Origin: a virus
Lineage: Duplodnaviria > Heunggongvirae > Uroviricota > Caudoviricetes
Virus record (IMG/VR): IMGVR_UViG_2639762884_000001
Reading direction: 5' to 3' (one strand)
Length of the DNA stretch: 64,000 nucleotides
Under the pieces are notes generated by a model. The model saw nothing but the letters and a program-made list of their open reading frames with translations. It was not told where the DNA came from and made no database searches. Below are positions 5,334-51,399 of this stretch, piece by piece. Each line of letters opens with the position of its first letter. Positions within the stretch are counted from its first letter, which is position 1. The position numbers and the translations under genes were made by a program.

Positions 5334-5445
5334 TTAGACACAATCCCTTCTGATTTACACATACCCTAAAACAATTTGTTTTCTGCCTTTTGTTGATTGA
5401 GATAATAAACCACATAAGAAAACAACTTGTTTTGGAGTGGTTTAA

Positions 5446-7897: not shown

Positions 7898-8231
7898 GGT
7901 ATAGCGTGAGGGAGAGTTGCGGCTGCCCACCTGTAATGTGCGGGAAGAAGAGAGGCGCTCACGTGCAGGCGGACTAACTTACCGCTGGATTCCCTCTGAA
8001 TGCCCAGCTACAGCGTAATTGTGCCAGACAGCCAACGGGTCACAATCGATTTCAGTAGGTTTTCGGGGAGATGATTATTCTGCCCACCAGCCACCTTAGG
8101 CCACTAAATCAGAATAATGTAAAAAGTGTACTCGGTACTGAACCTGAAAACTCACTGCCAAAACCACATTCACCGGAATAAAATCCTTTTTCGCCTGTGC
8201 GTTATTGCGATAATAACACCATCAAGAAAAC

Positions 8232-8582
8232 ATGTTGTTTAAGGATTGCTTTATGTTTGCAAATATCGACATCAACCAAATCAAGAAATTAACTCAAAAA
8301 GAGTTTGATCAGTTTTATGAGTTAGAAGGTTGGTCTTCCACTCTGATCAATTCGCGGTGGGTGCTTGAGCTGATGACTCGTGATGACGCACCTGCTTTGA
8401 TGATTTGCGACATGGGTGAAGATGCTGACTTTATGGATATGAGCGAATTTTGTGTGGACACATACAACCGCAGCCAGAAGTACTACTTCACATGCGATAG
8501 CGAAAATGACGTGATTTCTAAGGTCTATCTTCACCTTGTCCAGCATTGGGACGTTCAGGAGTTTCTTGAGGTATTCGCGTAA
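8232..8582 (+). CDS. hypothetical protein (116 aa; alternative start 8253 with AAGGA RBS)
   Basis: ORF; acidic Cys-containing product; hairpin 8593-8611 downstream. Confidence 0.5.
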   Translation: MLFKDCFMFANIDINQIKKLTQKEFDQFYELEGWSSTLINSRWVLELMTRDDAPALMICDMGEDADFMDMSEFCVDTYNRSQKYYFTCDSENDVISKVYLHLVQHWDVQEFLEVFA

Positions 8583-8735
8583 TCCCAACCAAAGCCAGCA
8601 TTGCTGGCTTAATTTCTCTATAGCCGCAGGGAGGAACCTGCATATCGATCATGCACCTGATCATTATGCTTTGTAGCCGTTTTCTTACTGGTATTATTTA
8701 CGCCATTGAGAAAACAAGTTGTTTACGGAGTTGTG

Positions 8736-9579: not shown

Positions 9580-9606
9580 ATGGCGCGCAAACCGCGCCAT
9601 TTTATT
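9580..9606 (+). terminator. Rho-independent terminator
   Basis: ATGGCGCG-CAAAC-CGCGCCAT hairpin followed by TTTATT. Confidence 0.8.
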
Positions 9607-9686
9607 ATGCCCGATAACAATTTGTTTTCTGCCTTATCTGATTTGTGAAAATGATTTCACTGAAGCAACTTAATAAGGAAACCATC

Positions 9687-10345: not shown

Positions 10346-10411
10346 TTATTCGTACAACGATAATTAACACCAACAAGAAAACAATTTGTTATTTACGATA
10401 AGGAATTAATC

Positions 10412-11481: not shown

Positions 11482-11510
11482 AAAAAAGCGCCCATAGTGG
11501 GCGCTCGATT
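11482..11510. terminator. bidirectional terminator hairpin (GCGCCCA-TAG-TGGGCGC)
   Basis: Stem 11488-11494 / 11498-11504 flanked by an A-run and T-rich tract; ends the leftward operon. An identical hairpin recurs at 11983-11999. Confidence 0.75.
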
Positions 11511-11741
11511 TTATTTGTGTAAACTGATTTTAAATCCCATTTCTACAAACGCTTTTAACATTAAAAATATATCAGCGTCGTTCACGTCTGCTTTTTTTCG
11601 CTCCTGGTCGCTCAATAAGTCAATTTTGCGCGTCGTTTCATCTATAAGCTCGACTGCGCGCCCAGCGTAACCAGCGATCCCAGCGATGCGATTAACATAA
11701 TATTCGTTATGGACGTTAACGCCAGCGATAAGAACAAACAT
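11511..11741 (-). CDS. hypothetical protein (76 aa)
   Basis: ORF at the distal end of the leftward operon. Confidence 0.4.
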   Translation of the reverse strand: MFVLIAGVNVHNEYYVNRIAGIAGYAGRAVELIDETTRKIDLLSDQERKKADVNDADIFLMLKAFVEMGFKISLHK

Positions 11742-11965: not shown

Positions 11966-12013
11966 TTTTAAAGCTCCTTTAAAGCGCCCATAGTGGGCGC
12001 TTGATTCCATTAA

Positions 12014-16166: not shown

Positions 16167-16186
16167 ATAGGTAAGTGATTACTTAG
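16167..16186. promoter_or_regulatory. class B palindromic motif (ATAGGTAAGTgatTACTTAG)
   Basis: In the divergent intergenic region between the helicase operon and the ParB-like gene. Confidence 0.5.
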
Positions 16187-16884
16187 TGGATTGTAGCAAT
16201 AAAATGGATGTAAAAATCACGATTTTGCAGGTTGATGTTGCCAACCTTCGCCCGAATACCTGGAACACCAATTCGGTTGGTGCGCAGAATTTTGAAAAAC
16301 TGAAAGGTTCTATCGAAAAATTGGGCTTTTTTAAGCCAATTTTGGCTCGTGAACTTGAAGATGGATTTTTTGAAATCCTCGGCGGCGAACATCGCTGGCG
16401 TGCCGCTATTGAGCAAGGAATTTCAACGGTTCCAGTGCTTTCTGTGGGCAAAATTAGCGATGTCGTAGCTAAACAGATGTCACTGGTGGACAACGAGCGA
16501 TACGGTGAAGACGACCAAATCGCATTGCAACGCTTCATTGAAGAAATTCAGTCAGAACTTGACTATCAACTGTCTGAAATCGCCCCGTATGACGACGAAA
16601 TCTCGATGGTTTTAGCAAAAGAGGCGGCAATCGACCTTGAAGCACTGGAGGCGTTGTCTCGTGGTAGTGATGAGCCTGTCGATACCGACAAACGAGAGAA
16701 AACCGAACGTGTGGGGGCGGAACATCAGACCATGCGCTTCAAAGTAACTTTCGATGCGTCAGATCGTGTTGCAGAAACCATAAAAAACATCATCAAAGAG
16801 CAGGCTATTAACACCGGTAATGAAATGGAGAACGCTGGTGAGGCTCTGGTGTGGCTGGTCGACTACTACAAGGAGCGTATGTAA
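16186..16884 (+). CDS. ParB/Srx-like N-terminal domain protein 1
   Basis: ILGGEHRWRAA matches the ParB/sulfiredoxin GxxRxxA box; acidic C-terminal half. Track start is GTG; ATG at 16204 is an alternative. Confidence 0.7.
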   Translation: MDCSNKMDVKITILQVDVANLRPNTWNTNSVGAQNFEKLKGSIEKLGFFKPILARELEDGFFEILGGEHRWRAAIEQGISTVPVLSVGKISDVVAKQMSLVDNERYGEDDQIALQRFIEEIQSELDYQLSEIAPYDDEISMVLAKEAAIDLEALEALSRGSDEPVDTDKREKTERVGAEHQTMRFKVTFDASDRVAETIKNIIKEQAINTGNEMENAGEALVWLVDYYKERM

Positions 16885-17552
16885 TGACCAAAAAGTTTGA
16901 AATCGTATATCGCGACCCGGCAGATCTTATTCCCTATGAGATGAATGCCAAAAAGCATGATGAACAGCAGATCCGAGATCTAGCCGCAGCCATTAAAAAG
17001 CGCGGATTTGACCAGCCAATTACGGTCGATAAGAACGACGTAATTATTACTGGCCACGGCCGCCGTGAGGCTGCAATTTTTGCTGGACTTGAGCGCGTAC
17101 CGGTTATTGTTCGCGATGATCTCAGTGATGACGAGGTTCGTGCGAAGCGCCTTGAAGATAACCGACTTGCCAGCATTGATTACGATGCAATTAAGCTACA
17201 GAAAGAGCTTGAGTCGCTTGTTCTGGACGATATCGAGGTTTTCGGCTTTGAAGAGCGTGAGTTGAATGTTCTCGTTGGCAGCATGACAGAAGAAATGGAC
17301 ACCGACTCGCTAGTTATCGATCTTGGCGAAGAAACTAAACGACAGAAGGATGAACACACCGAGATCAGTCGTGAAGTTGCAGCGGAAGAAGTACGTGTTG
17401 TCGACGTATTGGGCTTTAAAACGCTTCCTGCTGGCTCTGCCATTGTTGTTGGTGATTTGCTTGCCCACATGGAAGAAATGACGGGAGAAAGCGGGGTAGA
17501 CGCATTTGTGGCATATGCGGAGAAGATCTCTTCCGGGGAGATGGCTGCATGA
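16884..17552 (+). CDS. ParB/Srx-like N-terminal domain protein 2
   Basis: IITGHGRREAA ParB box; AAGGAG RBS; start overlaps the preceding stop (TAATG). Confidence 0.7.
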   Translation: MTKKFEIVYRDPADLIPYEMNAKKHDEQQIRDLAAAIKKRGFDQPITVDKNDVIITGHGRREAAIFAGLERVPVIVRDDLSDDEVRAKRLEDNRLASIDYDAIKLQKELESLVLDDIEVFGFEERELNVLVGSMTEEMDTDSLVIDLGEETKRQKDEHTEISREVAAEEVRVVDVLGFKTLPAGSAIVVGDLLAHMEEMTGESGVDAFVAYAEKISSGEMAA

Positions 17553-18214
17553 GCAAATACATCATCAACGTATCGTTTCAGACACGCGTAAATAAAACCA
17601 CGCGCACGTTGGAAATCGCTGAGTCGTTCGGGCTTGGCCTGGACGAAAAAGAGTGGACGCTTTACGACAATCTGGAGCTGGAAGTGAAGCAGGGCGATGT
17701 GGTGTACATCACCGGCCAATCCGGTTCCGGCAAATCCGTTGTGCTGCGCGAGTTGCAACGACAGATGAAGGATGAAGGGCTGTCTGTAGCCTCCATCGAT
17801 GATTTTACCTTCGATAATGAGGTTAACGTCATCGATCAGTTGGGCAAAACGACCAGCGATGCGCTTGGGTTGTTATCTATGGCTGGTCTGAACGATGCAT
17901 ATCTGTTTGTTCGCAAGCCTTCTGAAATGTCAGACGGTCAGAAATATCGTCTCAAGATTGCCAAACTGATTGAGTCAGGCGCTAAAGTGTGGGCTGCTGA
18001 CGAGTTCGGTGCTGTTCTAGACCGTGTAACCGCTCAGGTTGTGGCATCTAACCTCCAGCGTGCCGCTCGAAAGGTTGGTGCGACGGTAATGGTGGCGACG
18101 ACTCACGAAGACCTGAAGAACGCGCTGCGCCCGGATATGCAGATCACCAAGCACTACAAAGAACGCGTGAAGGTGGAATATCACAATGGTAGTCATGATG
18201 AGGTTCATTTATGA
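17549..18214 (+). CDS. soluble ABC-type ATPase
   Basis: Walker A GQSGSGKS, signature-like MSDGQKYRL, Walker B VWAADEF, H-loop ATTHE; 221 aa with no transmembrane domain. Confidence 0.8.
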   Translation: MSKYIINVSFQTRVNKTTRTLEIAESFGLGLDEKEWTLYDNLELEVKQGDVVYITGQSGSGKSVVLRELQRQMKDEGLSVASIDDFTFDNEVNVIDQLGKTTSDALGLLSMAGLNDAYLFVRKPSEMSDGQKYRLKIAKLIESGAKVWAADEFGAVLDRVTAQVVASNLQRAARKVGATVMVATTHEDLKNALRPDMQITKHYKERVKVEYHNGSHDEVHL

Positions 18215-19101
18215 CGGACATCATCATTAAACGCTACCGCCCTGAAGAGTTTCCGCGTCATCTGGACTTTCTGGAGCGAATGACTGTCACAAAGGGAACT
18301 GTAGAGGACTGGCACGCTCTTAAGTCGCTTCACTACAAAACAGACGGCAAACCTTTCGCGCCAACTTACTATCGCTGCGAACTTGATGACCGTCTGGTGG
18401 GCGTCGTGGTTATGGCTTACCCGAAACTACTGCTGGCACCTCGCCACCGCATGTTTCCTAAGTTGAAACCAACCACTAATACCACCGTGGCTAACCAGTA
18501 CTGGGGTCGGTACGTGAATAACAACTTTGCGGTGATCAGTCGCTCAGTTGTGGATACTCAGTATCGTGGCGTAGGCGTCTCTTATCGAATGATTAACCTG
18601 GTTAGCAGGATGCATGACCGGCCAATCATTGAGATCCAGTCCTCGATGAGCAAATACAATCCCTTCGCCATGAAAGCAGGGTTTAAGTTCATCCGCCCTG
18701 AGCGACCGAAGAGCTATGAAAGTGCACTGCGTGTATTCCAGCGCCATTTCCGTTCCGACCCGGGTGATAACGAGGCGATCGTCAAAGAGTTGTTCGCAAT
18801 GAGCGAGTCTCGTCGTCGCCGTGCACTGCGTGATCTGGTGGCGGACTACCACAAGAACAGTTCCCTGGCAAAAGCTGGGCGGAATCGTGGCACGACGATT
18901 CAGGACATTGCCGACAGTCTGGTGGACGAGGCCAGCATTGTGAAGCTGCTCAAGGACATTCACAACCTGAGCTTTACGTCTCCGTTGTATGGTGTGTACC
19001 GAAACCCTGACTTTGGCCGTCGACTGCCTGACACGCTGCCACTGCTGGCATTCGACAAACAACCTTTGGATAAACCGTTAGAAATTGCTTTACCGGCATA
19101 A
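18211..19101 (+). CDS. GNAT-fold acetyltransferase-like protein
   Basis: Motif A QYRGVGVS (Q/R-x-x-G-x-G) and downstream NPFAMKAGFKF; roughly 120-aa C-terminal extension. Confidence 0.55.
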   Translation: MTDIIIKRYRPEEFPRHLDFLERMTVTKGTVEDWHALKSLHYKTDGKPFAPTYYRCELDDRLVGVVVMAYPKLLLAPRHRMFPKLKPTTNTTVANQYWGRYVNNNFAVISRSVVDTQYRGVGVSYRMINLVSRMHDRPIIEIQSSMSKYNPFAMKAGFKFIRPERPKSYESALRVFQRHFRSDPGDNEAIVKELFAMSESRRRRALRDLVADYHKNSSLAKAGRNRGTTIQDIADSLVDEASIVKLLKDIHNLSFTSPLYGVYRNPDFGRRLPDTLPLLAFDKQPLDKPLEIALPA

Positions 19102-19110
19102 GGATTTGCC

Positions 19111-19377
19111 ATGACGTTAACCGATAAACAAAAGGACATCATCAAAACGCTCAATCTCGGTTATGAGCGAGGTCATCTACTTGACCTGGACGAATTGCTT
19201 GAAGTTTTGCCGTACAAGACAACCAAGCAAAGTATCCAGTTCTCAATTCGCGCTCTGATAAAAAAGGGGCTGGTGGAGAAAGGGCATACGCGCCAACGCA
19301 GTGACAATCGCTATCACCGCCGAACTCTTGGGTTAACCACTTTAGGTCGAGCCAAAGCGAAGTTACTGGTGATGTAA
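19111..19377 (+). CDS. small winged-helix-like DNA-binding protein (putative regulator)
   Basis: 88 aa; helix-turn-helix-like segment TKQSIQFSIRALIKKGLVEK followed by a basic tail. Confidence 0.45.
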   Translation: MTLTDKQKDIIKTLNLGYERGHLLDLDELLEVLPYKTTKQSIQFSIRALIKKGLVEKGHTRQRSDNRYHRRTLGLTTLGRAKAKLLVM

Positions 19378-19400
19378 TCGGTCTGGGAGCTTATTTAAAG

Positions 19401-19457
19401 ACCTGCATCTGTATATATAAATAATAAGTAACTTATTAAATATATACGGAAGCAGGC
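19401..19457. repeat. 57-bp imperfect palindromic element, copy 1
   Basis: acctgcatctgtatatataaataataagtaacttattaaatatatacggaagcaggc; core ATAAGT-A-ACTTAT; near-identical copy at 51400-51455. Confidence 0.8.
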
Positions 19458-19492
19458 TTCGTAAGACATGCCAGACCTAATTAAACACCCCA

Positions 19493-19533
19493 GAAAACAA
19501 GTTGGTTAGCAGATGCAGTAAACAAGTTGTTTT
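19493..19533. promoter_or_regulatory. two class A half/full sites upstream of the small terminase gene
   Basis: gaaaacaagttgg (19493-19505) and gtaaacaagttgtttt (19518-19533). Confidence 0.5.
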
Positions 19534-19572
19534 AGAGCGCATGGACGCGCTCTGTGTGTTTTAGAGGGATCT

Positions 19573-20205
19573 ATGACGGTCGAAAAAGACGAGGTAAAAA
19601 CTCGCCTGACACCAGCGGAGTGGGCCGAAGCTGAAGCCAAATGGACGTCAGGCGAATATACACTCTCAAAGCTGGAGGAAGAGTACGGCATTCGTCGTGA
19701 AACACTCTCCAGACATTTCAAAAAGCGAGGATTAGAGAAAGGCGCGGACTCTGTTGGGAAGATGGTTCGTGAGTCTCTTAAATCTGACGCAGAGCTTCGC
19801 GCTAAAGCCCGTGCGGAAAAGATAGAAGAACGTCGTACACGTTATGACGGCTGGGCGTATGCGTTGGGGCAGATGGTGATGGTCGAAGTCACTACGGCCA
19901 AACGTGAGGGGAAGCCTTTAGGGGCGATTGAGGATTCTCTCAAGAGCTTACAGAGAGCCAGTAATACCCTTGCAAAATGCTTTGAAGTTTCGTCCAAAGC
20001 ATTGGGCATGGATCATGCGGAAAATGACGAGGAAGAAATTCCGAACCTGGTATTTGGTGAGCTTACGCCTTCCCAGGTGGCGAAATTACGTCAGGAAGAC
20101 GACGAGCCTGAAATCATCGATGACGAATTGCTTGAGACGTTGGAAGAAGAAGCTCTAAGCGAATTTGATGCGACAGATGATGGAAGTGAAGGGGAGGACG
20201 AATAA
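19573..20205 (+). CDS. terminase small subunit (putative)
   Basis: HTH-like N-terminus, basic middle, acidic C-terminus; directly precedes and overlaps the large terminase start. Confidence 0.65.
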   Translation: MTVEKDEVKTRLTPAEWAEAEAKWTSGEYTLSKLEEEYGIRRETLSRHFKKRGLEKGADSVGKMVRESLKSDAELRAKARAEKIEERRTRYDGWAYALGQMVMVEVTTAKREGKPLGAIEDSLKSLQRASNTLAKCFEVSSKALGMDHAENDEEEIPNLVFGELTPSQVAKLRQEDDEPEIIDDELLETLEEEALSEFDATDDGSEGEDE

Positions 20206-21461
20206 TGGCAATCCCGTCCTCGCTCAGTCTTGTGCAACTGCATTCTGGACAGATGAAAGTCTTCCAGTCTCCGCATCGATTTAAAGTTGTTTGTGCTGGT
20301 CGACGCTGGGGAAAATCCCGGTTGTCGATCTCCACTATTATTCGTGCGGCGGCAAAGGAAAAAAAGCAAAGGGTCTGGTATGTCGCTCCTACTTACCAGA
20401 TGGCTCGCCAGATTTTGTGGGACGATCTACAGGAAGTTCTGCCTCGTAAGTGGGTTAGGAAAAAGAACGACACCACGATGACAATCGTGTTGAAGAACGG
20501 TTCGGAGATCGCCCTCAAAGGTGCTGATAAGCCTGACACTCTACGCGGCGTAGCGTTGCATTTTGTAGTGCTTGATGAATTTCAGGATATGAAGGCTGAC
20601 ACCTGGTACAAGGTGTTACGACCTACTCTTTCATCGACACGCGGCGGTGCACTGATCATTGGTACGCCAAAAGGCTTCTCGGAATTTCACAAACTGTGGA
20701 CTATAGGCCAGAACGTAGAGCTGCAAAGAAAGGGACAGTGGAAGAGCTGGCAGTTTGTAACTGCCGATTCTCCGTTTGTGCCTACGGCGGAAATTGAAGC
20801 TGCTAAGAACGATATGGACCCGAAATCGTTCGCTCAGGAGTACCTGGCGAGCTTTGAGAACATGTCCGGGCGCGTTTACTACCCGTTCGATCGTAACGTG
20901 CATGTAAAACCGCTTCAGTTCAACCCTCGGTTGCCTATATGGGTAGGGCAGGACTTCAACATTGACCCGATGTCTTCCGTAATTTTGCAACCTCAGCCAA
21001 ATGGTGAGCTATGGGCAATTGATGAATTGGTGCTCTTTTCCTCTAACACGGCAGAGGTTTGTGATGAGCTTGAGAGACGCTTCTGGCGCTGGAAATCACA
21101 GATAACGGTATTTCCAGATCCGGCAGGTGCTTATCGCCAACATGCTCGCGGGGAGTCTGACGTCGACATATTCAAAGAGAAGGGATTCTTACGTGTCGAT
21201 TATTCGAAAAAGCACCCGCCAATTGCGGATCGTGTTAATGCTGTTAACCGAATGCTGATGACCGCATCTGGAGATATCCGGCTGTATATCGATCCGAAGT
21301 GCAAGCATTTGATTGATTCACTGGAAAAAGTCATCTACAAGCCTGGAACACGAGATATGGATAAGACAGGTGGCATTGAGCATAGTGCAGACGCATTGGG
21401 CTATCCAGTACATCGTAGGTATCCAGTCAAAAACCGTGTTATTCTTGGTGGTTCTCGATAG
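20205..21461 (+). CDS. terminase large subunit
   Basis: Walker A CAGRRWGKS, Walker B VLDEFQD, C-terminal nuclease-type acidic motifs (FPDPAG). Confidence 0.85.
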   Translation: MAIPSSLSLVQLHSGQMKVFQSPHRFKVVCAGRRWGKSRLSISTIIRAAAKEKKQRVWYVAPTYQMARQILWDDLQEVLPRKWVRKKNDTTMTIVLKNGSEIALKGADKPDTLRGVALHFVVLDEFQDMKADTWYKVLRPTLSSTRGGALIIGTPKGFSEFHKLWTIGQNVELQRKGQWKSWQFVTADSPFVPTAEIEAAKNDMDPKSFAQEYLASFENMSGRVYYPFDRNVHVKPLQFNPRLPIWVGQDFNIDPMSSVILQPQPNGELWAIDELVLFSSNTAEVCDELERRFWRWKSQITVFPDPAGAYRQHARGESDVDIFKEKGFLRVDYSKKHPPIADRVNAVNRMLMTASGDIRLYIDPKCKHLIDSLEKVIYKPGTRDMDKTGGIEHSADALGYPVHRRYPVKNRVILGGSR

Positions 21462-21478
21462 GTAAGTAATTATCTAAG
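21458..21478. promoter_or_regulatory. class B motif (ATAGGTAAGTAATTATCTAAG)
   Basis: Intergenic, 10 nt upstream of the portal ATG. Confidence 0.5.
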
Positions 21479-21487
21479 GTTATTCAA

Positions 21488-23062
21488 ATGGAATTGAACG
21501 ACAAACAAATTAAGGATCTGGTGGCGCGACGCCACCCGGAATACGAAAAGAAAAAAGAACATTGGGACTTCCTCGCCAGCACTTACGCTGGCGGGCGTGG
21601 TTGGTTTACAGACAATATCTTTCGTTACTTTAAAGAGGGAGATCAGGAGTTTAAGGAGCGAGTTGAACGTGCTTATCGCTTCAACCACACTCGTGAGGTG
21701 GTAAACCTCATCAACAAATATCTCTTTAAAGAAGACATTCATAGAAATATCGAAGAGGCACCAGAGCAGATCCGCAATTTCTGGAAACGTGCGACTCGCC
21801 AGAATGCCTCTATTGACTCATTTATGGCCGCTATTGATTTGCAGTCGTCTATTTACGGTCGCATATGGGTTGTTGTCGATAGCACGATGAGTGGTGATGT
21901 TGAGTCAGTAGCTGACGAGAAAAAGAAAGATGCTCGCGCCTACGCCTACTGGATTTCACCTCAGCAAATGCTGGATGTGGCATGGGACGACGACGGGAAT
22001 ATGTTATGGGCGTTAATTGTGGAAGTCGCTCGCGATGACGCAGATCCTTTTACTTCTACAGGTCAGGAATACCAACGTTATCGTCTGTGGACACAAAACG
22101 AGTGGTATCTGTTCCGTGAGGAAGTGAAGAAGGGCGCTGGTGGAGCAGGTCGCCGTCAGGCAAAAGTTATTTTAGAGGATAGCGGTGAGCATAATCTCGG
22201 CGTAGTTCCTGTGTTTCCTGTTGATTGTATTGGAGAAAGTGAATCACCGTATTTCAGCCCATCGTTGATCGATGATATCGCTTATCTTGATCGTGCGGTT
22301 GCAAACTATCTGTCAAACCTTGATGCCATTATTCAGGATCAGACATTTAGCCAGTTGGCTATACCAGTACAGTCGCTTTTACCTGGTGATGAAAACCACA
22401 CTAAAGTGCTTGAAATGGGCACAAAGCGAGTATTCACCTACGATTCTGAAGGTGGAAACCAGCCGTTTTATCTGTCACCAGACCCGAAACAAGCTCAGAT
22501 GATCATCACTACGATTAAGACGGTGATTAACGAAATCTACCATTCAGTTGGTGTAGCTGGTGAGCGAACGAAGCAGGACAACGCACAGGGAATCGATAAC
22601 TCATCTGGTGCCGCAAAAATGTATGACTTCCAGCGTGTAAATAGCTTGCTTGTCACAAAAGCAGAGCGTCTGGAAAGGGCTGAACGCCAAATCATGCTAC
22701 TGGTTGCGAAATGGATGGGGGTAGATCTGGACGAAGACCACTCTTTAATTGCGTATCCAGAAAGTTTCGATATTCGTGGCCTTACTGATGAATTTTCTGT
22801 TGCCGAGAAACTGTCATTACTTCAGGCACCGGACTCTGTACGTCGTCACCAGATGGAAATGCTTATTGAGAAGATTTTCCCGAACATTACTGAGGCGATG
22901 AAAAAGGAATTTGATAAAGATCTCTTGAATTTTCCTCCAAAAAATGATCTAAATACCCTTGAAAATAAGTCAGTACTTACTTATGATCGTGGTGCAGCCC
23001 AAGAAAGCGGGCAAGATCAACCCCGAGGGAATGGGGACTCATCTACTCAAGAGAACGAGTGA
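21488..23062 (+). CDS. portal protein
   Basis: 524-aa protein directly after the large terminase; size, position and acidic C-terminus typical of portals. Confidence 0.75.
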   Translation: MELNDKQIKDLVARRHPEYEKKKEHWDFLASTYAGGRGWFTDNIFRYFKEGDQEFKERVERAYRFNHTREVVNLINKYLFKEDIHRNIEEAPEQIRNFWKRATRQNASIDSFMAAIDLQSSIYGRIWVVVDSTMSGDVESVADEKKKDARAYAYWISPQQMLDVAWDDDGNMLWALIVEVARDDADPFTSTGQEYQRYRLWTQNEWYLFREEVKKGAGGAGRRQAKVILEDSGEHNLGVVPVFPVDCIGESESPYFSPSLIDDIAYLDRAVANYLSNLDAIIQDQTFSQLAIPVQSLLPGDENHTKVLEMGTKRVFTYDSEGGNQPFYLSPDPKQAQMIITTIKTVINEIYHSVGVAGERTKQDNAQGIDNSSGAAKMYDFQRVNSLLVTKAERLERAERQIMLLVAKWMGVDLDEDHSLIAYPESFDIRGLTDEFSVAEKLSLLQAPDSVRRHQMEMLIEKIFPNITEAMKKEFDKDLLNFPPKNDLNTLENKSVLTYDRGAAQESGQDQPRGNGDSSTQENE

Positions 23063-30002: not shown

Positions 30003-33000
30003 ATGTCACAAAACGTAGAGTTTATCCTGTCGCTGGAAGACAAACAGTTTACAGCGTCAATCGATCGTGCGGGGAAACTGCTTACTCGATTTGGTGAGCA
30101 GGTAACAAAGCCTGCTCAAAAAATCCAAACCTTTGAACGCTCTTTGGGTTCGGTCGCCCGTATCATTGGCGTTCTGGAAAGCAAGCTCGATTCTACGGCA
30201 GATAAACTACAGGATGTAGCTGCCGGTTTTGAGCTTGCTTCAGATGCTACGCGTAAAATGCGTGGCAACATCACCAGCCTCAATTCTGGCCTTAAAGCCC
30301 TGATTGAGCGCGTCGATACGACAACTTCTTCAGTAGATAAACTCACCGCGTCATTACGTAAAGTGCAATCAGAGCTAAATGATTTCTCTGATTGGGCGAC
30401 CTATGCAAGCAAAAGCGCAAGCCGCTTTGGTACGGAGGTCAAAGAAGCCTCTGTGTCCGTGAGTGGCATGAATACGCGCCTTAATACCACGACGAAGCGA
30501 CTCAGTAATTGGGGTGTCACAACGAGTCAGGCTGCCGAGGGACTGAAAAAGGTTCGTGAGCAGATGGACGAAGTTATCGGACGTCAGCAACTGATTAGCA
30601 AGCCGGTACGCGTTCGTACATCTGGAAGTGGCGATGGTGGTAGCGGGCGGCGTAGCGGCGCTTCTGGCCATAGCGGTAAAAGTAACGAAGGAGGTATGTT
30701 CTCTGGCCTTCGTGGCAACATTTTCCTGCTTGGCGAGATCGGAGATGCAGCAAGAACGGTTACTGACATCATGTTTGGGTGGCAGAAGCCTATTGTTGAA
30801 GCTGCGGCCGAAATGGAACGTATGCGGGTGATGCTTCGAGGGTTGAATAAGGAGAAGTCCAACCCGGGCCAGGCTGCCGCTGATGATATGAAGTACATCG
30901 TAGACATGGCTCAAAATGCGCCGTTCGCGATGCAGGCGTTAACAGACTCCTTCGTGAAGTTTCGTTCTGCTGGCTTAGATCCAACCGATGGTTCTCTGAA
31001 GGCGCTGGTGGACTCCGTTGCTCGTTTTGGTGGTGATAGTGAGCTGTTGAAACGTGCGGCTGTGGCCGTTCAGCAGATGTCCGGTAAGGGCGTTGTGTCA
31101 ATGGAAGAGCTACGTCAGCAATTAGGTGAAGCCGTTCCTAACGCGATGCAGGCAATGGCAGACGCCGCAGGCATCACTATGGGGGAACTGACTAAAGCCG
31201 TTGCCAGCGGTACGGTTGAGGCAAAACAGGCGTTGTCTCTGATGTTTGTTGGTCTGCGTGCGGAGAATGAGAACGCAGCGAAAGACATGATGCAAACCTA
31301 CACAGGTGCGCTGGCGCAACTTCAGACGTCATTCACGTTATTTGCTGATCGGGTTGGTCAGGCCGGATATCTGGATTCTCTATCGAAGGGGATGAAAGAA
31401 CTGGCTTCAATCATGAATAGCGCCGAAGGGATTTCGTTTGCCAATTCTTTAGGTTCGGGGTTAACAACGGCAATCGATGGGTTGCGTCAGCTTGCTCAAT
31501 GGTTAGCAAAGAACCAAGAGCTGGTAATTAATCTCGGTAAGGTCGTGGCCGCGATGGTTGCGTTCAAACTGATGCGAGCAGGGATCATGGGGGTAGTTGG
31601 CGCTGGGAGCCAGATGGTTAGCACCTTTGCCACGATGGCGACCGCCATACAGACTCCATTTAACCTCGGCGCTACAGCAGTAACCCGATTCAATCGTGCG
31701 GCACGTATGGGGCTGGCTCCGATCCCCTCTCTTATTTTCGCCATCCGTGGGGCGATTACGGGGCTTAAAGGCGCTTTTGCTGGATTAACGGCGTTCATTG
31801 CAGCAAACCCTATAGGGGCAGCATTTACAGTTGCCACTGTAGCTGTTGCTGGCCTAATCACGTACATGACCATGCTCCGCAGCGAAACTTCAAAGGTCGT
31901 TGACGAGATTAGGAAAATACCAGAGGCGATGACGGCGGCCAAACGTGCACAAATGGCCGACCGCGCAGAAAAGCTCGAAAAGCAGATTCTTGCTGATCAA
32001 CGAGCATTAAAAACTGGTGAGGGTGTTAATTACGTATCTAACTCTGCCGGTGTTATTACTCACAAAGAGTCGAAGGCTGACATCGAAGCACGCCTGAAAA
32101 AAAATCAGGAAGAGTATCAAAAGATAACCGGCACGATAGCTCTTGGTGACGGCGCTGTAGCAAAGCGTTTGGCTAAAGAGGCTGCCGAATCTCAGATTGA
32201 GAAAATTCGAGCGGAAAACCAGATTTTTGCGGCAACATTCGTGAAAGCCCGGCAGGAGGCTCTGGACAAGATCCAGAAAATCAATGATGACGGTTCACTT
32301 TCAGATGACGAAAAGAACAAGCTATTGGCACCGTTACGTGAAACGGTAAACAAAAGCTATCTGGAGCCTGCGCAAAAACTGGTTGATTCACTTTCTTCTC
32401 GTAAGAATGCCACCGAGAAGCAAATAGCGACTCTTAATGATCAGCTTGAAAAAGCCAAAAAGGATGGAAATACCGAGCAAATCCAGAAACTGCAAGGCAG
32501 TATCCGTGGTTATCAGGAGCATTTGGAAGCCGTTGCTCAGGAGCTGACTCAGGCAGAGTTCGAGAGAGATAACGCTGCCAAAACTGGTAAGGGCGTAATG
32601 TCAAACCAGGGGACTGTTCTTGGGTTAGGTACAACTGATAAAGCTGCTCAGAAGGCGTTGGCGCAATATATGCGAAACCAGATGGATTCTGCGACTTATC
32701 AGCGTACTTTGCCTGACGGCACTCCGATGATGGACTTCGAAGGTAAGCCGATTATTGGGCCTAAACAACTCAAGACGCAGCTTAATTTGCAGAAAGCATC
32801 CAGCGCCAGCTCTCTGGAGAAAATGAGCGATGAAGAGCGTGCCGCAGCCATTGCTGCACTAACTAAAGCTCGTGAACAGGATGCAGCAGCTGCCGAGAAA
32901 GCAGCCCAACGATCAGCTAACGCCTCGCAGCGTGCGGCCAAGAAGGAACAGGCAGCGCAACAGAAACTGGCAGCCGGATACCAGAAGGCTCTGGACAAAG

Positions 33001-41942: not shown

Positions 41943-44900
41943 ATGTGGTACAGGGAAGGTACTATCACATTTACACAGGGTAGCAATACTCTGGTTGGGG
42001 CAGGGACAGCCTGGAACGTAACAGCTAATGGTGTGTTGCCGGGGATGATCGTCATTGGCCCCGACAATAAGCTGTATGAGATCAAGCGCGTAATAAGCGA
42101 TACGAATATTGTTCTCTCAGAACCTTATACCGGCGAAACTCAGTCTGAGGTTCCGTGCCGAATCATTACGACCTATGAAGGCGACTTAACACAGTTTAGC
42201 GCGCGCTTTACTGCGCTAATGTCGCGTATGTCGGCTGATTCCAAGTCCATGCGCAGTTGGTTGACTGCGCTGGATGAGGTGACAATCGAGCGTGAAGACG
42301 GTACAGAAGTGACCGTTAAGCCGCTGATACAGATTGTCAACGAGCACAACGAAAACGTTGAGTGGTATAAAAATAACACCGACGCGATTGACGCTGCTGG
42401 CGACAAAGCTCGTGAGGCGGCGGCCAGTGCTGCCGCAGCAGCAGAAAGCGCCAATACCGCTGGAGAAAAAGCCTCTCAAGCGTCTCAAAGTGCATCCGCT
42501 GCAGAGTCCTCAAAAAGCGCGGCGGCCACCAGTGCCGGTGCCGCGAAAACGTCTGAAACGAATGCTGCAGCGTCACAAAAATCTGCAGCCACTTCTGCAT
42601 CCACCGCGACCACGAAGGCGTCAGAAGCTGCCACCTCAGCCCGGGATGCGGCGGCCTCAAAAGAGGCAGCGAAATCATCAGAAACGAGCGCAGCCTCGAG
42701 CGCCAGTAATGCCGCTTCCTCGGCAACGGCGGCAGGAAATTCCGCGAAGGCGGCAAAAACGTCCGAGACGAACGCCAGGTCTTCTGAAACGGCAGCGGGA
42801 CAGAGCGCCTCAGCTGCGGCAGGCTCAAAAACAGCGGCTGCATCATCTGCCAGTGCCGCGTCAACAAGTGCCGGGCAGGCCTCAGCCAGTGCCACCGCCG
42901 CCGGAAAATCGGCAGAAAGCGCCGCATCATCCGCTTCAACAGCCACAACGAAGGCTGGCGAAGCCACTGAACAGGCCAGCGCAGCAGCGAGGTCAGCTTC
43001 CGCAGCGAAGACATCCGAAACGAACGCGAAAGCGTCGGAAACCCGTGCAGAATCCTCAAAAACGGCAGCCGCATCGTCCGCCAGTTCGGCAGCGTCATCG
43101 GCATCATCTGCGTCTGCTTCAAAAGATGAGGCGACCAGACAGGCGTCAGCAGCGAAGGGCAGCGCCACGACGGCATCCACGAAAGCAACAGAGGCGGCAG
43201 GCAGTGCGACGGCAGCATCTCAGAGCAAAACTGCTGCTGAATCCGCTGCGACCCGTGCGGAAGCTGCTGCTGATCGTGCTGAAGAGATTGCCGGTGCAGT
43301 TGCGATGGAAGACGCAAGCCTTACAACTAAAGGTGTTGTGAAACTTAGCAGTGCTGTCGATAGCACCAGTGAATCGCTGGCCGCAACGCCAAAAGCAGTT
43401 AAGGCCGCATATGATAATGCTGAAAAAAGACTACAGAAGGATCAGAATGGTGCTGATATCCCAGACAAGGGCCGCTTCCTGAGTAACATTAATGTTTACA
43501 GCAAAGGTGAAGTGGATAAGAAAAAGGGGATGCGAAAATACACTTTCTCTGCTCCTGCAAATGCAGTAAGCGGTAAGTGGTATCCTGTAGTCTTTCGCCG
43601 AACTGGTGGTGGCACAGATGAATTAGCCTCACGAGTGGTTATCACCACTTATTCCTCAGCTGGCGGATACGCTATGAATAATTGTGAGTTTAATGGTTTT
43701 GTTATGCCGGGCGGTTGGTCTGATCGCGGTTCATATGCTGTTGGTTTTTTCTCAATATATTCAACCGTTGAACGATCTATACACTCGATTATCGCAAGCG
43801 TGAAAGATGATGATTTGTGTAGTGTATTTTACGTTGAGACAAGAGCATTCCCTATCCAGATTTTTGCTGAGGAAGGATTAAATGTGATTGTTCCAACGGC
43901 TGATTATGCAGTTGGTCAAACCACTTATAAGTGGGGGGCCACTGATCCTTTATCAGAAAGTACGAATGCACAGATAATTTTGGACTTTAAAAATGGACGA
44001 GGTTATTACTGTTCACATCCATTTATTTCAAGTCTTTCAGGAAATGCTGCTACAGCAACGAAATTACAGACGGCAAGATCTATCGGTGGAGTTGGTTTCG
44101 ACGGTTCTGCCAATATTAATCTTCCAGGTGTAAACACTACGGGTAATCAGAACACCACTGGTAATGCCGCAACTGCTACAAAACTACAGACGGCAAGAAC
44201 TATCGGCGGCGTGAGCTTTGATGGTACTGCAAATATTAATTTGCCAGGTGTTAATACGACTGGTAATCAGAATACAACAGGTAATGCGGCTACTGCTACG
44301 AAGTTGCAGACTGCGCGTACTATTAATGGGGTGTCGTTTGACGGTTCGGCAAATATTTCCTTGTCACCAGCAAATATAGGTTGCCCAGCATCTCCTACTG
44401 GTTGGTTAACTACAGGAAGTAATGGCGGAGCAATAACAACAGCCCAGTTAGTGACGTTATTGCAAAATAATGGAGCCTTTAACACAAAGGCATGGATTGC
44501 TCGATGTGCGTGGGCCTATGCCAATAGCGCAACCATACCAAATAGTGAAACTGGTTGTGGCGTTATTCCATTGGCAGGAGCTGTTATAGAAGTATTTAAT
44601 AACGGTAGTAGTTCAAATAATTATACGATCCGCATAACAACGGCCACAACGACAAGTGTTTCCGGTGCTCTCACTAATGCGGAGTTTATCTATGTATTTA
44701 ATGGCACAGATTATTCTCCAGGATGGCGAAGAGTATATAACACGAAAAACAAACCAACAGCCTCTGATGTCGGTGCATTACCTCTTACCGGTGGTACATT
44801 ATCTGGAGGTTTGACATCTTCTGGCGAGATCATTTCAAAATATGCAAATGGTTTCCGCATTGCTTACGGTAGCTTTGGGTTCTTTATCCGTAATGATGGA

Positions 44901-45980
44901 TCGAACACATATTTCATGCTAACAGCATCAGGAGACACATTAGGTTCATGGAACGGTTTGCGACCTATTACAATTAATAATACCAGCGGTGCTGTATCAA
45001 TTGGTAATGGACTAAATGTGACTGGTGGCGTAAATGGTAGTTTGAACGGTAATGCTTCAACAGCTACGAAGTTGCAAACAGCGAGAAACATCAATGGTGT
45101 TAAGTTTGATGGCTCAGGCGATATCAACATTAATACATTGGTATCTCGTGGCCGAGTTACGGCGTTAAGCGGTTCTACTCAAGGTACTGCTGGCATTCAA
45201 ATGTACGAGGCGTACAACAATAGCTACCCGACCACGTATGGCAACGTATTGCACATGAAAGGTGCGAGTGCTGCTGGTGAGGGCGAGTTGCTTATTGGCT
45301 GGAGTGGTACGAGCGGTGCACATGCGCCGGTTTTCATTCGCTCCAGAAGAGATACCACTGATGCGGCATGGTCAGCGTGGGCGCAGGTATATACCGCTAA
45401 GGATTCAATCCCTGGTGTGAATACAACCGGTAATCAGAATACTACTGGTAATGCCGCAACAGCCACAAAATTGCAGACAGCAAGGAAAATTGCTGGTGTG
45501 GCGTTTGATGGCTCTGCCGATATAACTTTGACTGCGGCTAACCTTAATGCTTACACGAAAACAGAGGTAACAAACCTTCTAAGTTCCTATGTGAAGAGCA
45601 GTGCTCTTCCAAGCATGACTGTGCGAACTTCCTCTGTTTCAGGTGGGGATATGGGCATGAGCTTGTCCGCATTCATTAGCCACCTAAAATCAAATGGGGC
45701 GTTTAGCAAAAGTTATTGGATTGGCTTTGGCGATGCTATGGGATTCAATGCTGGCAGTATCAACAATATAACGGGATTTGGTGCTGTAGAATTAGCAGAA
45801 TCTATAATCGAAGTTTTTAATCTACCTAACGGTGATTATACAATTCGTTTAACAACGTCACATAAAGCTGACTACGGTGGAGTTACAAACGCAATCCTCG
45901 TTTATCACTACCGTAGTAATAGAAGTCCGTCAGGTCAATGGCTGAAATTTGCAGGTACTGTTGGGGCAACAAGTAACTGA
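41943..45980 (+). CDS. side tail fibre protein
   Basis: 1345 aa; long Ala/Ser/Thr-rich low-complexity stalk (about 42400-43300) and repeated GNQNTTGNAATATKLQTAR-I-GV-FDGSANINL units typical of phage tail-fibre repeats. Confidence 0.8.
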   Translation: MWYREGTITFTQGSNTLVGAGTAWNVTANGVLPGMIVIGPDNKLYEIKRVISDTNIVLSEPYTGETQSEVPCRIITTYEGDLTQFSARFTALMSRMSADSKSMRSWLTALDEVTIEREDGTEVTVKPLIQIVNEHNENVEWYKNNTDAIDAAGDKAREAAASAAAAAESANTAGEKASQASQSASAAESSKSAAATSAGAAKTSETNAAASQKSAATSASTATTKASEAATSARDAAASKEAAKSSETSAASSASNAASSATAAGNSAKAAKTSETNARSSETAAGQSASAAAGSKTAAASSASAASTSAGQASASATAAGKSAESAASSASTATTKAGEATEQASAAARSASAAKTSETNAKASETRAESSKTAAASSASSAASSASSASASKDEATRQASAAKGSATTASTKATEAAGSATAASQSKTAAESAATRAEAAADRAEEIAGAVAMEDASLTTKGVVKLSSAVDSTSESLAATPKAVKAAYDNAEKRLQKDQNGADIPDKGRFLSNINVYSKGEVDKKKGMRKYTFSAPANAVSGKWYPVVFRRTGGGTDELASRVVITTYSSAGGYAMNNCEFNGFVMPGGWSDRGSYAVGFFSIYSTVERSIHSIIASVKDDDLCSVFYVETRAFPIQIFAEEGLNVIVPTADYAVGQTTYKWGATDPLSESTNAQIILDFKNGRGYYCSHPFISSLSGNAATATKLQTARSIGGVGFDGSANINLPGVNTTGNQNTTGNAATATKLQTARTIGGVSFDGTANINLPGVNTTGNQNTTGNAATATKLQTARTINGVSFDGSANISLSPANIGCPASPTGWLTTGSNGGAITTAQLVTLLQNNGAFNTKAWIARCAWAYANSATIPNSETGCGVIPLAGAVIEVFNNGSSSNNYTIRITTATTTSVSGALTNAEFIYVFNGTDYSPGWRRVYNTKNKPTASDVGALPLTGGTLSGGLTSSGEIISKYANGFRIAYGSFGFFIRNDGSNTYFMLTASGDTLGSWNGLRPITINNTSGAVSIGNGLNVTGGVNGSLNGNASTATKLQTARNINGVKFDGSGDININTLVSRGRVTALSGSTQGTAGIQMYEAYNNSYPTTYGNVLHMKGASAAGEGELLIGWSGTSGAHAPVFIRSRRDTTDAAWSAWAQVYTAKDSIPGVNTTGNQNTTGNAATATKLQTARKIAGVAFDGSADITLTAANLNAYTKTEVTNLLSSYVKSSALPSMTVRTSSVSGGDMGMSLSAFISHLKSNGAFSKSYWIGFGDAMGFNAGSINNITGFGAVELAESIIEVFNLPNGDYTIRLTTSHKADYGGVTNAILVYHYRSNRSPSGQWLKFAGTVGATSN

Positions 45981-48976: not shown

Positions 48977-49083
48977 CGCCTTTTTGTTAACAGCCATTGA
49001 TTCTCGCCTAAAAATTCTAAGGCAGCACCTACCATTTAACCTTTACACCACAGCCGTAGGCATTTAGGCTATATCACATATAA

Positions 49084-49099
49084 GAAAACAAGTTGTTTC
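49084..49099. promoter_or_regulatory. class A palindrome (GAAAACAAGTTGTTTC)
   Basis: 35 nt upstream of the ParA-like gene. Confidence 0.55.
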
Positions 49100-49133
49100 A
49101 GACGATAATTATATACGCAAAGGGAACTCTCCA

Positions 49134-49802
49134 ATGACCAAGATCTTTGTGGTTGGCGGCACAAAGGGCGGGCCTGGCAAATCCACCGTTGCCCAGCAAA
49201 TTGCCGTTTGCCTGAAAGTCAAAAAGAAGAAGAAGGTTTATATCACCGATATAGATATTCAGCGCACGACAACGAGCTGGTGTGAAGACCGTCGACAGAA
49301 CGAAGATCTTGAGCTGATTCCTTTTGCATACGTTCAAGATGACATCATTAAGCACCTAAAATCGCTTCAGGGTAGAGCTGAGTATGTAGTGGTAGATGCT
49401 GGTGGCTTTGACTCCGAAATTCAGCGACAAGCGATGCTGATGGCCGACGTTATCATTATCCCGCTGCGTCCTAAGCGTCGTGATTTGAAATCTTTACGTG
49501 ACATCGATCCTATTATCGACAATGTTCGCAATGTAAACGACAAAGTGAAAGTCCGCGCGGTCATGAACCAATGCCCGGCTTTGCCATCACAAGTGTCTCG
49601 CATTCTAGCGGCTAAAGAGATTGTCGAGACGTTTGGCATCGAGTCTGCGCCAGTCAATCTATATAACCGCAACGTCTATGATGATGCGGAAGAGTCTGGT
49701 CGTTCTATCTTTGAAATGACCGGTAGCGAGCGCGACAAAAAGGCGGAAGCCGAGTTTGAAGAATTTGTAGATTATCTGTTGAGTCTGGAGGAAGAAGAAT
49801 AA
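49134..49802 (+). CDS. ParA/MinD-family partition ATPase (small type)
   Basis: Deviant Walker A GGTKGGPGKST, VVVDAGG Walker B-like region; 222 aa. Confidence 0.8.
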   Translation: MTKIFVVGGTKGGPGKSTVAQQIAVCLKVKKKKKVYITDIDIQRTTTSWCEDRRQNEDLELIPFAYVQDDIIKHLKSLQGRAEYVVVDAGGFDSEIQRQAMLMADVIIIPLRPKRRDLKSLRDIDPIIDNVRNVNDKVKVRAVMNQCPALPSQVSRILAAKEIVETFGIESAPVNLYNRNVYDDAEESGRSIFEMTGSERDKKAEAEFEEFVDYLLSLEEEE

Positions 49803-51295: not shown

Positions 51296-51399
51296 GAGGC
51301 TAAAACACTGATTCTAACATGATCTCCCTTGATAAATCTGTCAATGACATAGCATCTGGGGTTGGAGTCAAATTATGTTGTTCTTGGTATCCATTAGGA

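Follow-up and report, generated by a model that had tools for sequence, protein, structure and literature searches.

A nested palindrome at three gene-block borders of SSU5-type phage-plasmids: a possible transcription-boundary hairpin with a sequence-specific arm

A nested palindrome of about 98 bp stands in two near-identical copies at borders between large gene blocks in the 64,000-nt stretch of viral DNA analysed here (hereafter the window; IMG/VR record IMGVR_UViG_2639762884_000001, Caudoviricetes), and relatives carry a third copy at a third border. With a confidence that falls somewhat short of even, we favour the reading that it is a transcription-boundary hairpin, either a terminator or an insulator, whose arm is at the same time the recognition box of a putative factor. 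The window is assigned to an Escherichia coli SSU5-type phage-plasmid because its positions 18000-22000 match Escherichia phages CMS-2020a and Cyrano (the latter identical with plasmid pLF82) at 99% identity and Salmonella phage SSU5, like Klebsiella phage-plasmids, at ~80%. Phage-plasmids of this type are common in Enterobacteriaceae, some relatives carry resistance genes, and almost nothing is known about the organisation of their lysogeny, late transcription and lytic replication. A three-copy cis element at the block borders defines their probable transcription units, and would offer both a handle for finding the factor that reads the arm and candidate sites for origin mapping. Even as a mere terminator family, it would be a tidy case of a terminator palindrome under sequence-level constraint.

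The duplication is exact over 43 nt (TATATAAATAATAAGTAACTTATTAAATATATACGGAAGCAGG), a string that occurs exactly twice, at 19414-19456 and 51411-51453, both times on the + strand; no such repeat arose in 100 dinucleotide-preserving shuffles. The initial annotation, made from the window alone, had described two near-identical imperfect palindromes of roughly 57 bp, each bounded by CCTG...CAGG. The duplication and these bounds hold, while the extent needs revision, as the cores run from 19402 to 19456 (55 nt) and from 51401 to 51453 (53 nt, one TA repeat fewer), not 19401-19457 and 51400-51455, and the whole element measures ~98 bp. Copy 1 (19380-19477; site 1), between the stop of an 88-aa gene and terS, consists in order of an outer arm GGTCTGG(GAG), a 12-nt spacer, an inner arm, an AT-rich centre, the second inner arm, a 14-nt spacer and the outer arm CCAGACC. 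It is the complementarity of GGTCTGG before the core (19380-19386) with CCAGACC after it (19471-19477) that makes the element a nested palindrome. Copy 2 (51380-51477; site 2), flanked by a cargo gene on the minus strand and by the gene that opens the replication block, has a degenerate left outer arm (GTTCTTGG, 51380-51387), the core, a + strand T-tract that abuts the stem (TCTTTT, 51454-51459), and CCAGACC at 51471-51477, the same offset as in copy 1. After the right inner arm of copy 1 there is no T-tract, the sequence there being CTTCGTAAG.

Divided into left arm, centre and right arm, the cores read CCTGCATCTGTATATAT / AAATAATAAGTAACTTATTAA / ATATATACGGAAGCAGG in copy 1 and CCTGTTTCTGTATAT / AAATAATAAGTAACTTATTAA / ATATATACGGAAGCAGG in copy 2. 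The inner arms are 15-17 nt long (CCTGyTTCyGTATATAT/ATATATACGGAAGCAGG); the right arm is identical in both copies, the left takes the form CCTG(C/T)(A/T)TCTGTATAT(AT), and the two depart from complementarity by one A.A mismatch and one T.G wobble in copy 1 and by two mismatches, both T.G wobbles on the + strand, in copy 2. The 21-nt centre common to both copies, AAATAATAAGTAACTTATTAA, is itself a small palindrome (AATAAGT-A-ACTTATT), and together with the (TA)n stretches it forms ~37 bp with 3-4 G/C between inverted 14-nt boxes. The flanking similarity first seen around the copies (taaaagac, ccagacc) is real, and it is more than mere flank: taaaagac belongs to the symmetry, the left flank of copy 1 (TTTAAAGACCTG) mirroring the right flank of copy 2 (CAGGTCTTTTAAAAGAC).

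As single-stranded DNA, the + strand folds more stably than shuffled sequence (z = -5.7 for copy 1 and -7.4 for copy 2), and the RNA folds of the + strand cores reach -24.6 kcal/mol in copy 1 and -27.1 kcal/mol in copy 2 (-18.6 on its - strand), with -44.2 kcal/mol for the whole copy 1 region, 19378-19480. A rightward transcript would thus be expected to fold into a long hairpin with a GC-containing base (CCUGyUUCyG / CGGAAGCAGG) and an AU-rich stem on top; for copy 2, the predicted stem has 17 bp below and 7 bp above a 2x2 internal loop and is closed by a loop of 3 nt. With this predicted fold, and as an intergenic element of a co-directional genome, copy 2 has the outward form of a T7-type RNase III site, an imperfectly paired stem of at least ~20 bp, interrupted by an internal loop, in a polycistronic transcript. 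Similar long imperfect hairpins with internal loops stand between genes of co-directional phage transcripts at the T7 RNase III sites (R0.3 to R18.5) and at lambda sib; unlike those, the present element has only three copies, all at block borders, and it combines a two-fold symmetry at the level of DNA with an invariant arm, neither of which an RNase III site requires.

Alignment with related genomes showed that the element is conserved and revealed the third copy (site 3), which in relatives lies ~46 kb downstream of copy 2, past the right end of the window. Among loci retrieved through their neighbour genes (terS, the 246-aa gene after copy 2 and the Dam gene) rather than through the palindrome itself, site 1, upstream of terS, is present in 73 of 74, site 2, upstream of the replication block, in 73 of 73, and site 3, downstream of Dam, in 65 of 74; of the nine loci where site 3 was missed, eight were later recognised as diverged forms. 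Scans of the whole genomes of Cyrano, E. coli NZ_OZ369442, Klebsiella pneumoniae pVH1-2-1 and Klebsiella oxytoca pCAV1099-111 found exactly three sites each, and at the same junctions: in front of terS, in front of the helicase/primase block and behind the Dam methylase gene. The 4-7 places per record returned by BLAST need not represent extra copies; in NZ_OZ369442 (5 places, the only such record scanned whole) they correspond to three palindromes counted on both strands. A two-arm pattern scan of the same lineage recovered only the known site 3 and one coding-region coincidence, and a collection scan with the 14-mer TATGGGAGCAAGGC, a pattern too short for the purpose, gave chance matches only.

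The element is also widespread. A 261-nt query around copy 1, which also matches the operator motifs described below, finds 798 plasmids in PLSDB, spread over Klebsiella, Escherichia, Enterobacter, Yersinia, Salmonella, Citrobacter, Cronobacter and Shigella; plasmids of the Y. pestis pMT1 and Salmonella pHCM2 types are among them. In complete E. coli genomes, the element occurs in 260 of 5,426, at 861 places that are all on plasmids (none chromosomal) and nowhere annotated. Rfam 15 yielded only chance-level microRNA-precursor matches (at most 17.5 bits, against gathering scores of at least 81), and literature searches for the arm sequence, for SSU5 ends and packaging, and for pHCM2/pMT1 palindromes found no description of it in the library searched. 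Unannotated and without an Rfam or literature match, the element is previously undescribed.

The three positions coincide with the major divisions of the genome. In the Cyrano annotation (126 features), almost all genes lie on the same strand: a first block leads from terS and terL through the tail and lysis genes to a toxin-antitoxin pair, parA and cargo; a second comprises the helicase, primase, ligase, Pol III alpha, recombination and nucleotide-metabolism genes and runs to the Dam methylase; a third is the RNase H block, followed by the ParB/ParB-Srx/ABC-ATPase operon that leads back to terS. The palindromes of the window would accordingly be copies 1 and 2 of a boundary element placed at three junctions of large co-directional blocks, namely between the ParB/ABC operon and the late genes from terS, between the late genes with lysis, parA and cargo and the replication and DNA-metabolism genes, and between the block ending in Dam and the RNase H block. 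Copy 1 does lie beside the small terminase gene, 116 nt upstream of terS, as the initial annotation had it; its placing of copy 2 in a divergent region is true of this window, whereas in SSU5 the upstream gene is co-directional and in relatives the left neighbours are many and unrelated. Of the roles it had put forward (packaging site, origin or shared regulatory region), the last, taken as a regulatory or boundary element, gains support from the recurrence at three block junctions in every relative examined.

Signals of transcription termination are distributed over these junctions in a patterned way. At sites 2 and 3, a T-tract (TCTTTT, CTTTTT or CTGTTTT) abuts the right arm in essentially all lineages, while the bases beyond it diverge; the opposite strand bears no such tract. 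The 8 nt after the right arm contain on average 5.2 T on the + strand versus 3.7 on the - strand at site 2 (41 unique sequences), and 4.6 versus 2.9 at site 3; at site 1 of the main lineages, the means are 2.9 and 3.4 for the two strands, with no U-tract on either. Both copies combine their stable stem-loop with a position at the end of a unit, copy 1 after the + strand ParB/ABC/88-aa operon and copy 2 after the late, lysis and parA genes (here a minus-strand cargo gene intervenes; in SSU5 and others the genes are co-directional). With its hairpin and T-tract, copy 2 is predicted to be an intrinsic-terminator-like signal for rightward transcription, and from there to the next gene of the window a consensus scan called no other + strand terminator-like site.

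At site 1, a U-tract is supplied by a different structure. A hairpin in the terS leader (TAGAGCGC-ATGGAC-GCGCTCTG, then TGTGTTTTAG; 19533-19564, + strand) lies 77 nt downstream of copy 1, before the Shine-Dalgarno sequence and the terS ATG at 19573, and is the sole hairpin-plus-U-tract between the 88-aa gene and terS in this lineage. Relatives show a compensatory GAGCAC/GTGCTC change (locus L157) and wobbles (L164 and L183) in it, and the hairpin suggests attenuation or antitermination control of the late operon. An Acinetobacter relative (L488; TerS 32% identity) has an architecturally equivalent hairpin with T8 before terS.

A diverged clade (pVH1-2-1, pCAV1099-111 and IMG/VR loci L350-L356 and L359; TerS 59-64% identical) presents the reverse of the window's lineage at site 1, where T5-T8 is found on the imperfect palindrome and no U-tract accompanies the leader hairpin of terS; its sites 2 and 3 have a separate canonical GC-rich hairpin with a T-tract within ~40 nt. 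Because the T-tracts, the leader hairpin and the canonical terminators show this complementary distribution, every boundary in every lineage appears to be furnished with one hairpin-plus-U-tract, from the palindrome or from a conventional terminator. In that clade, the canonical terminators beside the half-elements of site 2 and site 3 are homologues that differ by compensatory changes (GGCAC/GTGCC versus GGCGC/GCGCC), and they are bracketed (L496 6341-6369; L497 ~8575-8615, pCAV1099-111; pVH1-2-1) by CTCCCAGAA ... TCTGGGG, which is the outer-arm motif of the main lineage in swapped order.

Taken as a boundary hairpin, the element would act at copy 2 and site 3 through the U-tract directly after it, stopping or insulating transcription of the upstream block before the promoter of the next lytic operon; at copy 2, that block contains parA and cargo genes, which are presumably expressed in the lysogen. 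At copy 1, termination would probably be left to the leader hairpin, and the palindrome may serve to form an RNA end, to be processed or to insulate. Promoter-like sequences come after each boundary. The nearest known concept to this arrangement is that of a terminator coupled to the promoter behind it, or of a terminator palindrome that a transcription factor also binds; both kinds have been described, an example being the yobI terminator, a LexA site upstream of ruvA (Fletcher et al., bioRxiv 10.64898/2026.08.19.745784). Like intrinsic and promoter-coupled terminators, the element closes a transcription unit at its 3' end with a hairpin and T-tract (at copy 2 and site 3), precedes by some tens of nucleotides the promoter from which the next co-directional unit would start, and is plausibly also a protein site. 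Unlike them, it forms a hairpin of 49-57 nt with an AU-rich upper half, nested in a second, outer inverted repeat, and its sequence is used three times per genome and conserved across genera; moreover, copy 1 is without a T-tract, and one arm outlives the hairpin in the diverged clade.

Variation among 105 unique versions of the element bears on what is being conserved. Arm positions 1-4 (CCTG/CAGG), 7 and 10-14 (GTATA/TATAC) are nearly invariant, the exceptions being two or three at position 4 (G.T or other) and three at position 10. Positions 5, 6, 8 and 9 vary, all with fully compensated states: CTTCCG/CGGAAG, CTTCTG/CAGAAG, CGTCTG/CAGACG and CTTTCG/CGAAAG, as well as T-A at position 5 in L280. 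Watson-Crick pairs account for 1502 cells and other combinations for 178. Most intermediates are G.T wobbles on the + strand, which number 82 cells against 23 on the - strand (site 1, 17:5; site 2, 53:2; site 3, 12:16); these cells are not phylogenetically independent, and the count shows a bias that lends weak support to a single-stranded form of the + strand, that is, RNA. Owing to slippage in (TA)n, the cores are between 49 and 57 nt long, and the arms are far more conserved than the adjoining spacers.

The compensated changes also bear on a different explanation, according to which the element is purely a DNA operator: a protein of the phage-plasmid or the host, bound to the double-stranded arms, would co-control the three operons, and the potential to form a hairpin would be a by-product of the dyad. 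The CCTG and GTATA blocks of the arms are near-invariant in more than 100 unique elements, every element lies upstream of an operon start, the centres of one genome evolve together and a single arm is kept without its partner in the diverged clade, all of which such an operator would account for. Compensated double changes at four arm positions are, however, unexpected in a protein half-site. The spacing of the arms is not constant, with differences of up to 8 bp, the centre can be inverted (site 2 of Cyrano), the distance from arm to promoter differs by site and lineage (~21, 45 or >100 nt), and the promoter family found at copy 1 recurs at least nine more times without the palindrome. Nor was a candidate binder found, the sequence matching neither a LexA box nor the integration host factor (IHF) consensus. 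Overall, we regard a pure operator as quite unlikely.

Several specific motifs were considered and set aside along the way. The LexA box CTGT-N8-ACAG is represented only by half-boxes (CTGTATATA ... TATATACAG) ~25 nt apart, whose critical T alternates with C (CCGTATA), and the motifs of integron attC sites (GTTRRRY ends) are, like that of IHF, not present. An activator site for the copy 1 promoter is disfavoured by the occurrences of this promoter/operator family without the palindrome and by the unconserved arm-to-promoter distance. A T4-type late promoter, TATAAATA, is present in the centre in + orientation in most copies; it is inverted with the centre in Cyrano site 2 and absent in several lineages, and no gp55-like factor is annotated. 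Resemblances to T7-like promoters (TATAGGAGCC, TATGGGAGCA) are likewise unaccompanied by an annotated single-subunit RNA polymerase gene.

In the diverged clade, sequence conservation and pairing come apart. At its sites 2 and 3, the left arm is gone and the RNA fold is at shuffle level (z = -1.3 and +0.4); at all three sites, the right arm is kept together with ~30 nt of AT-rich 5' sequence, always in gene orientation. The right arms of pVH1-2-1 read TATAGGAGCCAGGC at the three sites (14/14 identical), and across lineages the right arms align to TTAAATA-(N)-TAT-N-GGAGCAnGG. Site 2 of pCAV1099-111 and pVH1-2-1 carries two AT-rich-plus-box units, tail-to-tail around the canonical terminator. 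Since the AT-rich stretch and 14-nt box co-evolve across copies and persist in an oriented form without the hairpin, the 14-nt arm with its adjoining AT-rich stretch would appear to be a sequence-specific box for a putative trans-acting factor of the element. Locus L357 retains the same nested architecture with a different sequence, its perfect 15-bp arms being TGCCTTGCTCCCATA and its outer arms CCGCAGTG/CACTGCGG.

The copies within a genome do not evolve independently. Centres are often lineage-specific and common to the copies of one genome; in genome 2600255169, site 2 equals site 3, arm variant included, and in many E. coli plasmids site 1 equals site 2. Because lineage-specific centres and even arm variants are shared in this way, copy-to-copy homogenisation appears to operate in addition to conservation. 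Mosaics exist as well, NZ_OZ369442 having an 'E. coli-type' site 1 and an 'SSU5-type' site 2. In Cyrano (L361, ~31150-31215), arms and flanks of site 2 keep their usual orientation, but the AT-rich centre between the arms runs opposite to that of other genomes, which is evidence that the centre can flip; any function of the centre must therefore tolerate both orientations.

Shared variants, the inverted Cyrano centre and slippage in (TA)n length are also what would be seen if the palindrome were a functionless or selfish repeat resembling the repetitive extragenic palindromic (REP) sequences, kept similar by gene conversion and quasipalindrome correction and tolerated between genes. REP/BIME and ERIC sequences are indeed repeated, transcribed, intergenic imperfect palindromes that may terminate transcription or stabilise mRNA and that evolve in concert. 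In contrast to them, the present element is confined to one phage-plasmid family, with a fixed copy number, fixed positions and no RAYT-type transposase. Its three positions are unchanged in all the lineages that were compared, which extend from E. coli through Yersinia and Klebsiella to the clade with 59-64% TerS identity, and it has spread neither to other intergenic regions nor to the chromosome (no chromosomal place in 5,426 E. coli genomes). Together with arms far more conserved than the spacers beside them, these observations make a functionless repeat improbable.

Several observations weigh against the preferred reading of the element as a boundary hairpin with a recognition box. Neither strand of copy 1 or of its main-lineage orthologues bears a U-tract, which disqualifies copy 1 as a canonical intrinsic terminator. 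A hairpin of 53-57 nt with an AU-rich top is atypical for terminators, and the consensus terminator scan called neither copy, in part owing to its 8-nt loop limit. To the left of copy 2, the gene in this window is on the opposite strand, which leaves only parA read-through or antisense transcription to be stopped. The wobble bias is gone at site 3 (12 versus 16 cells), and counted as independent events it is ~2:1, which is not significant. Template-switch 'quasipalindrome correction' or gene conversion could yield symmetric arm changes without selection on pairing. Finally, one arm is kept without the hairpin, and pairing is thus not the whole story.

The persistence of the box raises the possibility that the element is a cis-acting master site of the lytic programme. 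The 14-nt box and AT-rich segment heading each of the three operons would then be read by a putative phage-plasmid factor that fires replication or switches all blocks together, and box and factor would have co-evolved across the range that extends from E. coli to the plasmids of Yersinia (pMT1), Salmonella (pHCM2) and Klebsiella. We consider this conceivable, if doubtful.

A more specific proposal, and a rather unlikely one in our judgement, is that the copies are lytic replication origins, used several to a genome, with a meltable AT-rich centre between inverted initiator boxes or with R-loop initiation by a T4-like replisome. The architecture fits in that an AT-rich segment (~21-37 bp, 85-100% A+T) is flanked by a box and an inverted box, the unit of AT-rich sequence and 14-nt box keeps a fixed orientation even without the palindrome, and copy 2 lies directly upstream of the helicase and primase genes. 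Cyrano and relatives encode T4-like UvsW and UvsY, a gp32-like SSB, RecA/UvsX-like, SbcC/SbcD-like and RuvC-like proteins and RNase H. Multiple palindromic origins have precedents in Bacillus phage SPP1 (oriL/oriR) and herpes simplex virus (HSV; oriL/oriS). HSV-1 oriS and oriL have an AT-rich centre between inverted UL9 boxes, and the two SPP1 copies, one by the replication genes and one in the late region, are bound by G38P. The present element resembles both in its inverted boxes around an AT-rich meltable centre and in its several copies, one by helicase/primase genes and another in or near the late region. Unlike in those systems, no origin-binding protein was identified here: the 246-aa protein encoded beside copy 2 showed no initiator-like fold, its sole suggestive match being a weak one to the T4 gp59 helicase loader. 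In addition, origins do not predict the one-sided T-tracts or their complementarity with canonical terminators, the spacing between the arms varies (49-57 nt), and the plasmid replicates from repA, which is sited away from the palindromes. GC and AT skew across the whole Cyrano genome shows no inflection at the sites; it follows gene orientation and is uninformative on the origin.

Partition sites offer another comparison. The linear phage-plasmid N15 has four dispersed sopC-like inverted repeats, which also affect late gene expression. As with those repeats and P1 parS, a few palindromic sites are scattered among phage genes here, with ParA and ParB-like genes just upstream of copies 2 and 1, respectively; the element, however, has no sequence similarity to them and is much longer, and its neighbouring ParB-like proteins are of the ParB/Srx nuclease type.

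The recombination genes named above also enter the argument for a programmed break or recombination site, in which an extruded hairpin or cruciform would be cut, for instance by the element's own SbcCD/gp46-47-like nuclease, for T4-style recombination-dependent replication, or would form a hotspot of module exchange. Besides the SbcC/SbcD-like, RuvC-like, RecA/UvsX-like, UvsY and UvsW proteins, the AT-rich centre, which favours cruciform extrusion, the mosaic genomes and a cargo hotspot left of copy 2 with at least 10 unrelated neighbours are compatible with such a role. Palindromes cut by SbcCD far exceed these short arms with an unpaired centre of at least 20 nt, though, two sites of the diverged clade are without the hairpin, and a variable region borders site 2 only; a break site therefore seems very improbable to us. 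If site-specific recombination acted on the direct copies, 32 kb would be lost, whereas all relatives have kept the arrangement. The hotspot itself spans 50222-51400, where relatives have at least 10 unrelated sequences or genes, and the right side of copy 2 is conserved.

Packaging was the first role suggested for the element, and it is the least probable of those weighed here. A cos or pac signal read by the terminase, with copy 1 as the functional one, would suit its position 116 nt from terS, and the linear SSU5 record (NC_018843.1/JQ965645.1) starts at the equivalent of window position 19439 and ends at 19438, with Cyrano (OV696614.1) starting at 19440; these points inside the palindrome are the one hint of a terminus. 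But with three near-identical sites in each genome, at distances of 32 and 46 kb, the cuts would be sub-genomic, whereas a cos site is single. The TerL is of the Terminase_6N/Terminase_3 type by its best Pfam matches, the TerL_ATPase (PF03354) match staying below its cut-off, and its closest phage relatives (~25% identity) are Jersey-like, Dhillonvirus and T5-like rather than members of the lambda/HK97 cos clade. The record starts lie 9-10 nt off the symmetry centre with no base duplicated or missing, and joining the SSU5 ends restores the palindrome of relatives without gain or loss of a base; the Cyrano record represents the sequence of plasmid pLF82, annotated anew and re-oriented to allow a comparison with SSU5, and the contigs of relatives end at unrelated positions. 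The record starts in copy 1 are likely to reflect a contig break at the palindrome or an orientation convention, and the palindrome would account for breaks there in short-read assemblies and in the SSU5 reference record. A partly symmetric site beside the small terminase gene recalls lambda cosN, from which the element differs in its three copies and non-cos terminase. It shares with N15 telRL the form of a ~56-bp palindrome in a phage-plasmid; unlike N15, the related plasmids have circular records, and the 126 annotated Cyrano features include no protelomerase.

Around copy 1, the 88-aa gene (19111-19377, + strand) ends directly before the element, with the ParB/Srx-like genes further upstream (16186-17552). 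Downstream, terS (19573-20205, + strand; 210 aa, phrog_867 'DNA binding domain') is the first gene of the late block and is directly followed by TerL (20205-21461, + strand). Between copy 1 and terS, a -10-like TAATTA (19478-19483, + strand; family TAATTA / AAAACAAnTTGTTT) and two operator-like palindromes on the + strand, AAAACAAGTTGGTT at 19490-19506 and AAACAAGTTGTTTT at 19517-19533, from a family with at least 10 copies in the window, would represent the late promoter of terS and its operators. Copy 2 follows ParA (49134-49802) and the cargo gene (50222-51295, - strand), which encodes a 357-aa protein of phrog_22329 with no function assigned. To its right lie the gene of the 246-aa all-alpha protein (51570-52310, + strand), the DnaB-like helicase (52354-53694) and the primase (53704-54957). 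A candidate sigma-70-type promoter of the replication block, TTCCAA-17-TATCAT (51497-51525, + strand), stands ~45 nt after copy 2, with 8/12 consensus matches in a region conserved across lineages, and the homologous positions at sites 2 and 3 of pCAV1099-111 were flagged as promoter-like; the consensus promoter scan of the window called no sigma-70 promoter in or beside either copy.

The window contains further families of repeats. The operator-like palindrome AGAAAACAAnTTGTTT is found at 5349-5381, 5417-5436, 8225-8244, 8709-8728, 9595-9627, 10359-10391, 19490-19506, 19517-19536, 49083-49102 and 52319-52338. Its members lie ~10 nt after a -10-like TAATTA or GATAAT and upstream of + strand genes that include terS (two copies), parA and the helicase, and the family looks like a promoter regulon under one repressor or regulator. 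A 20-nt palindrome, ATA(A/G)GTAAGTAnnTAC(T/C)TAT, has ~12 copies against 0.5 expected, just upstream of many gene or operon starts (9111, 16167, 21458, 22965, 28456, 34961, 41880, 46101, 51538, 56806 and 60322). It shows GGTA..TACC versus AGTA..TACT covariation with G.T intermediates on the + strand, and its ATAAGT/ACTTAT half-sites recur, at a different spacing, in the centre of the large palindrome. These copies could be intercistronic RNA hairpins or a phage-specific promoter or operator. A canonical terminator-like hairpin, AAAGCGCCCATAGTGGGCGCT followed by T-rich sequence, is duplicated at 11485-11515 and 11981-12011, 496 nt apart and with 90% identity, and the tail-fibre gene contains 120-nt periodic repeats at 44004-45541, in 4-5 copies with 63-78% identity to the reference copy.

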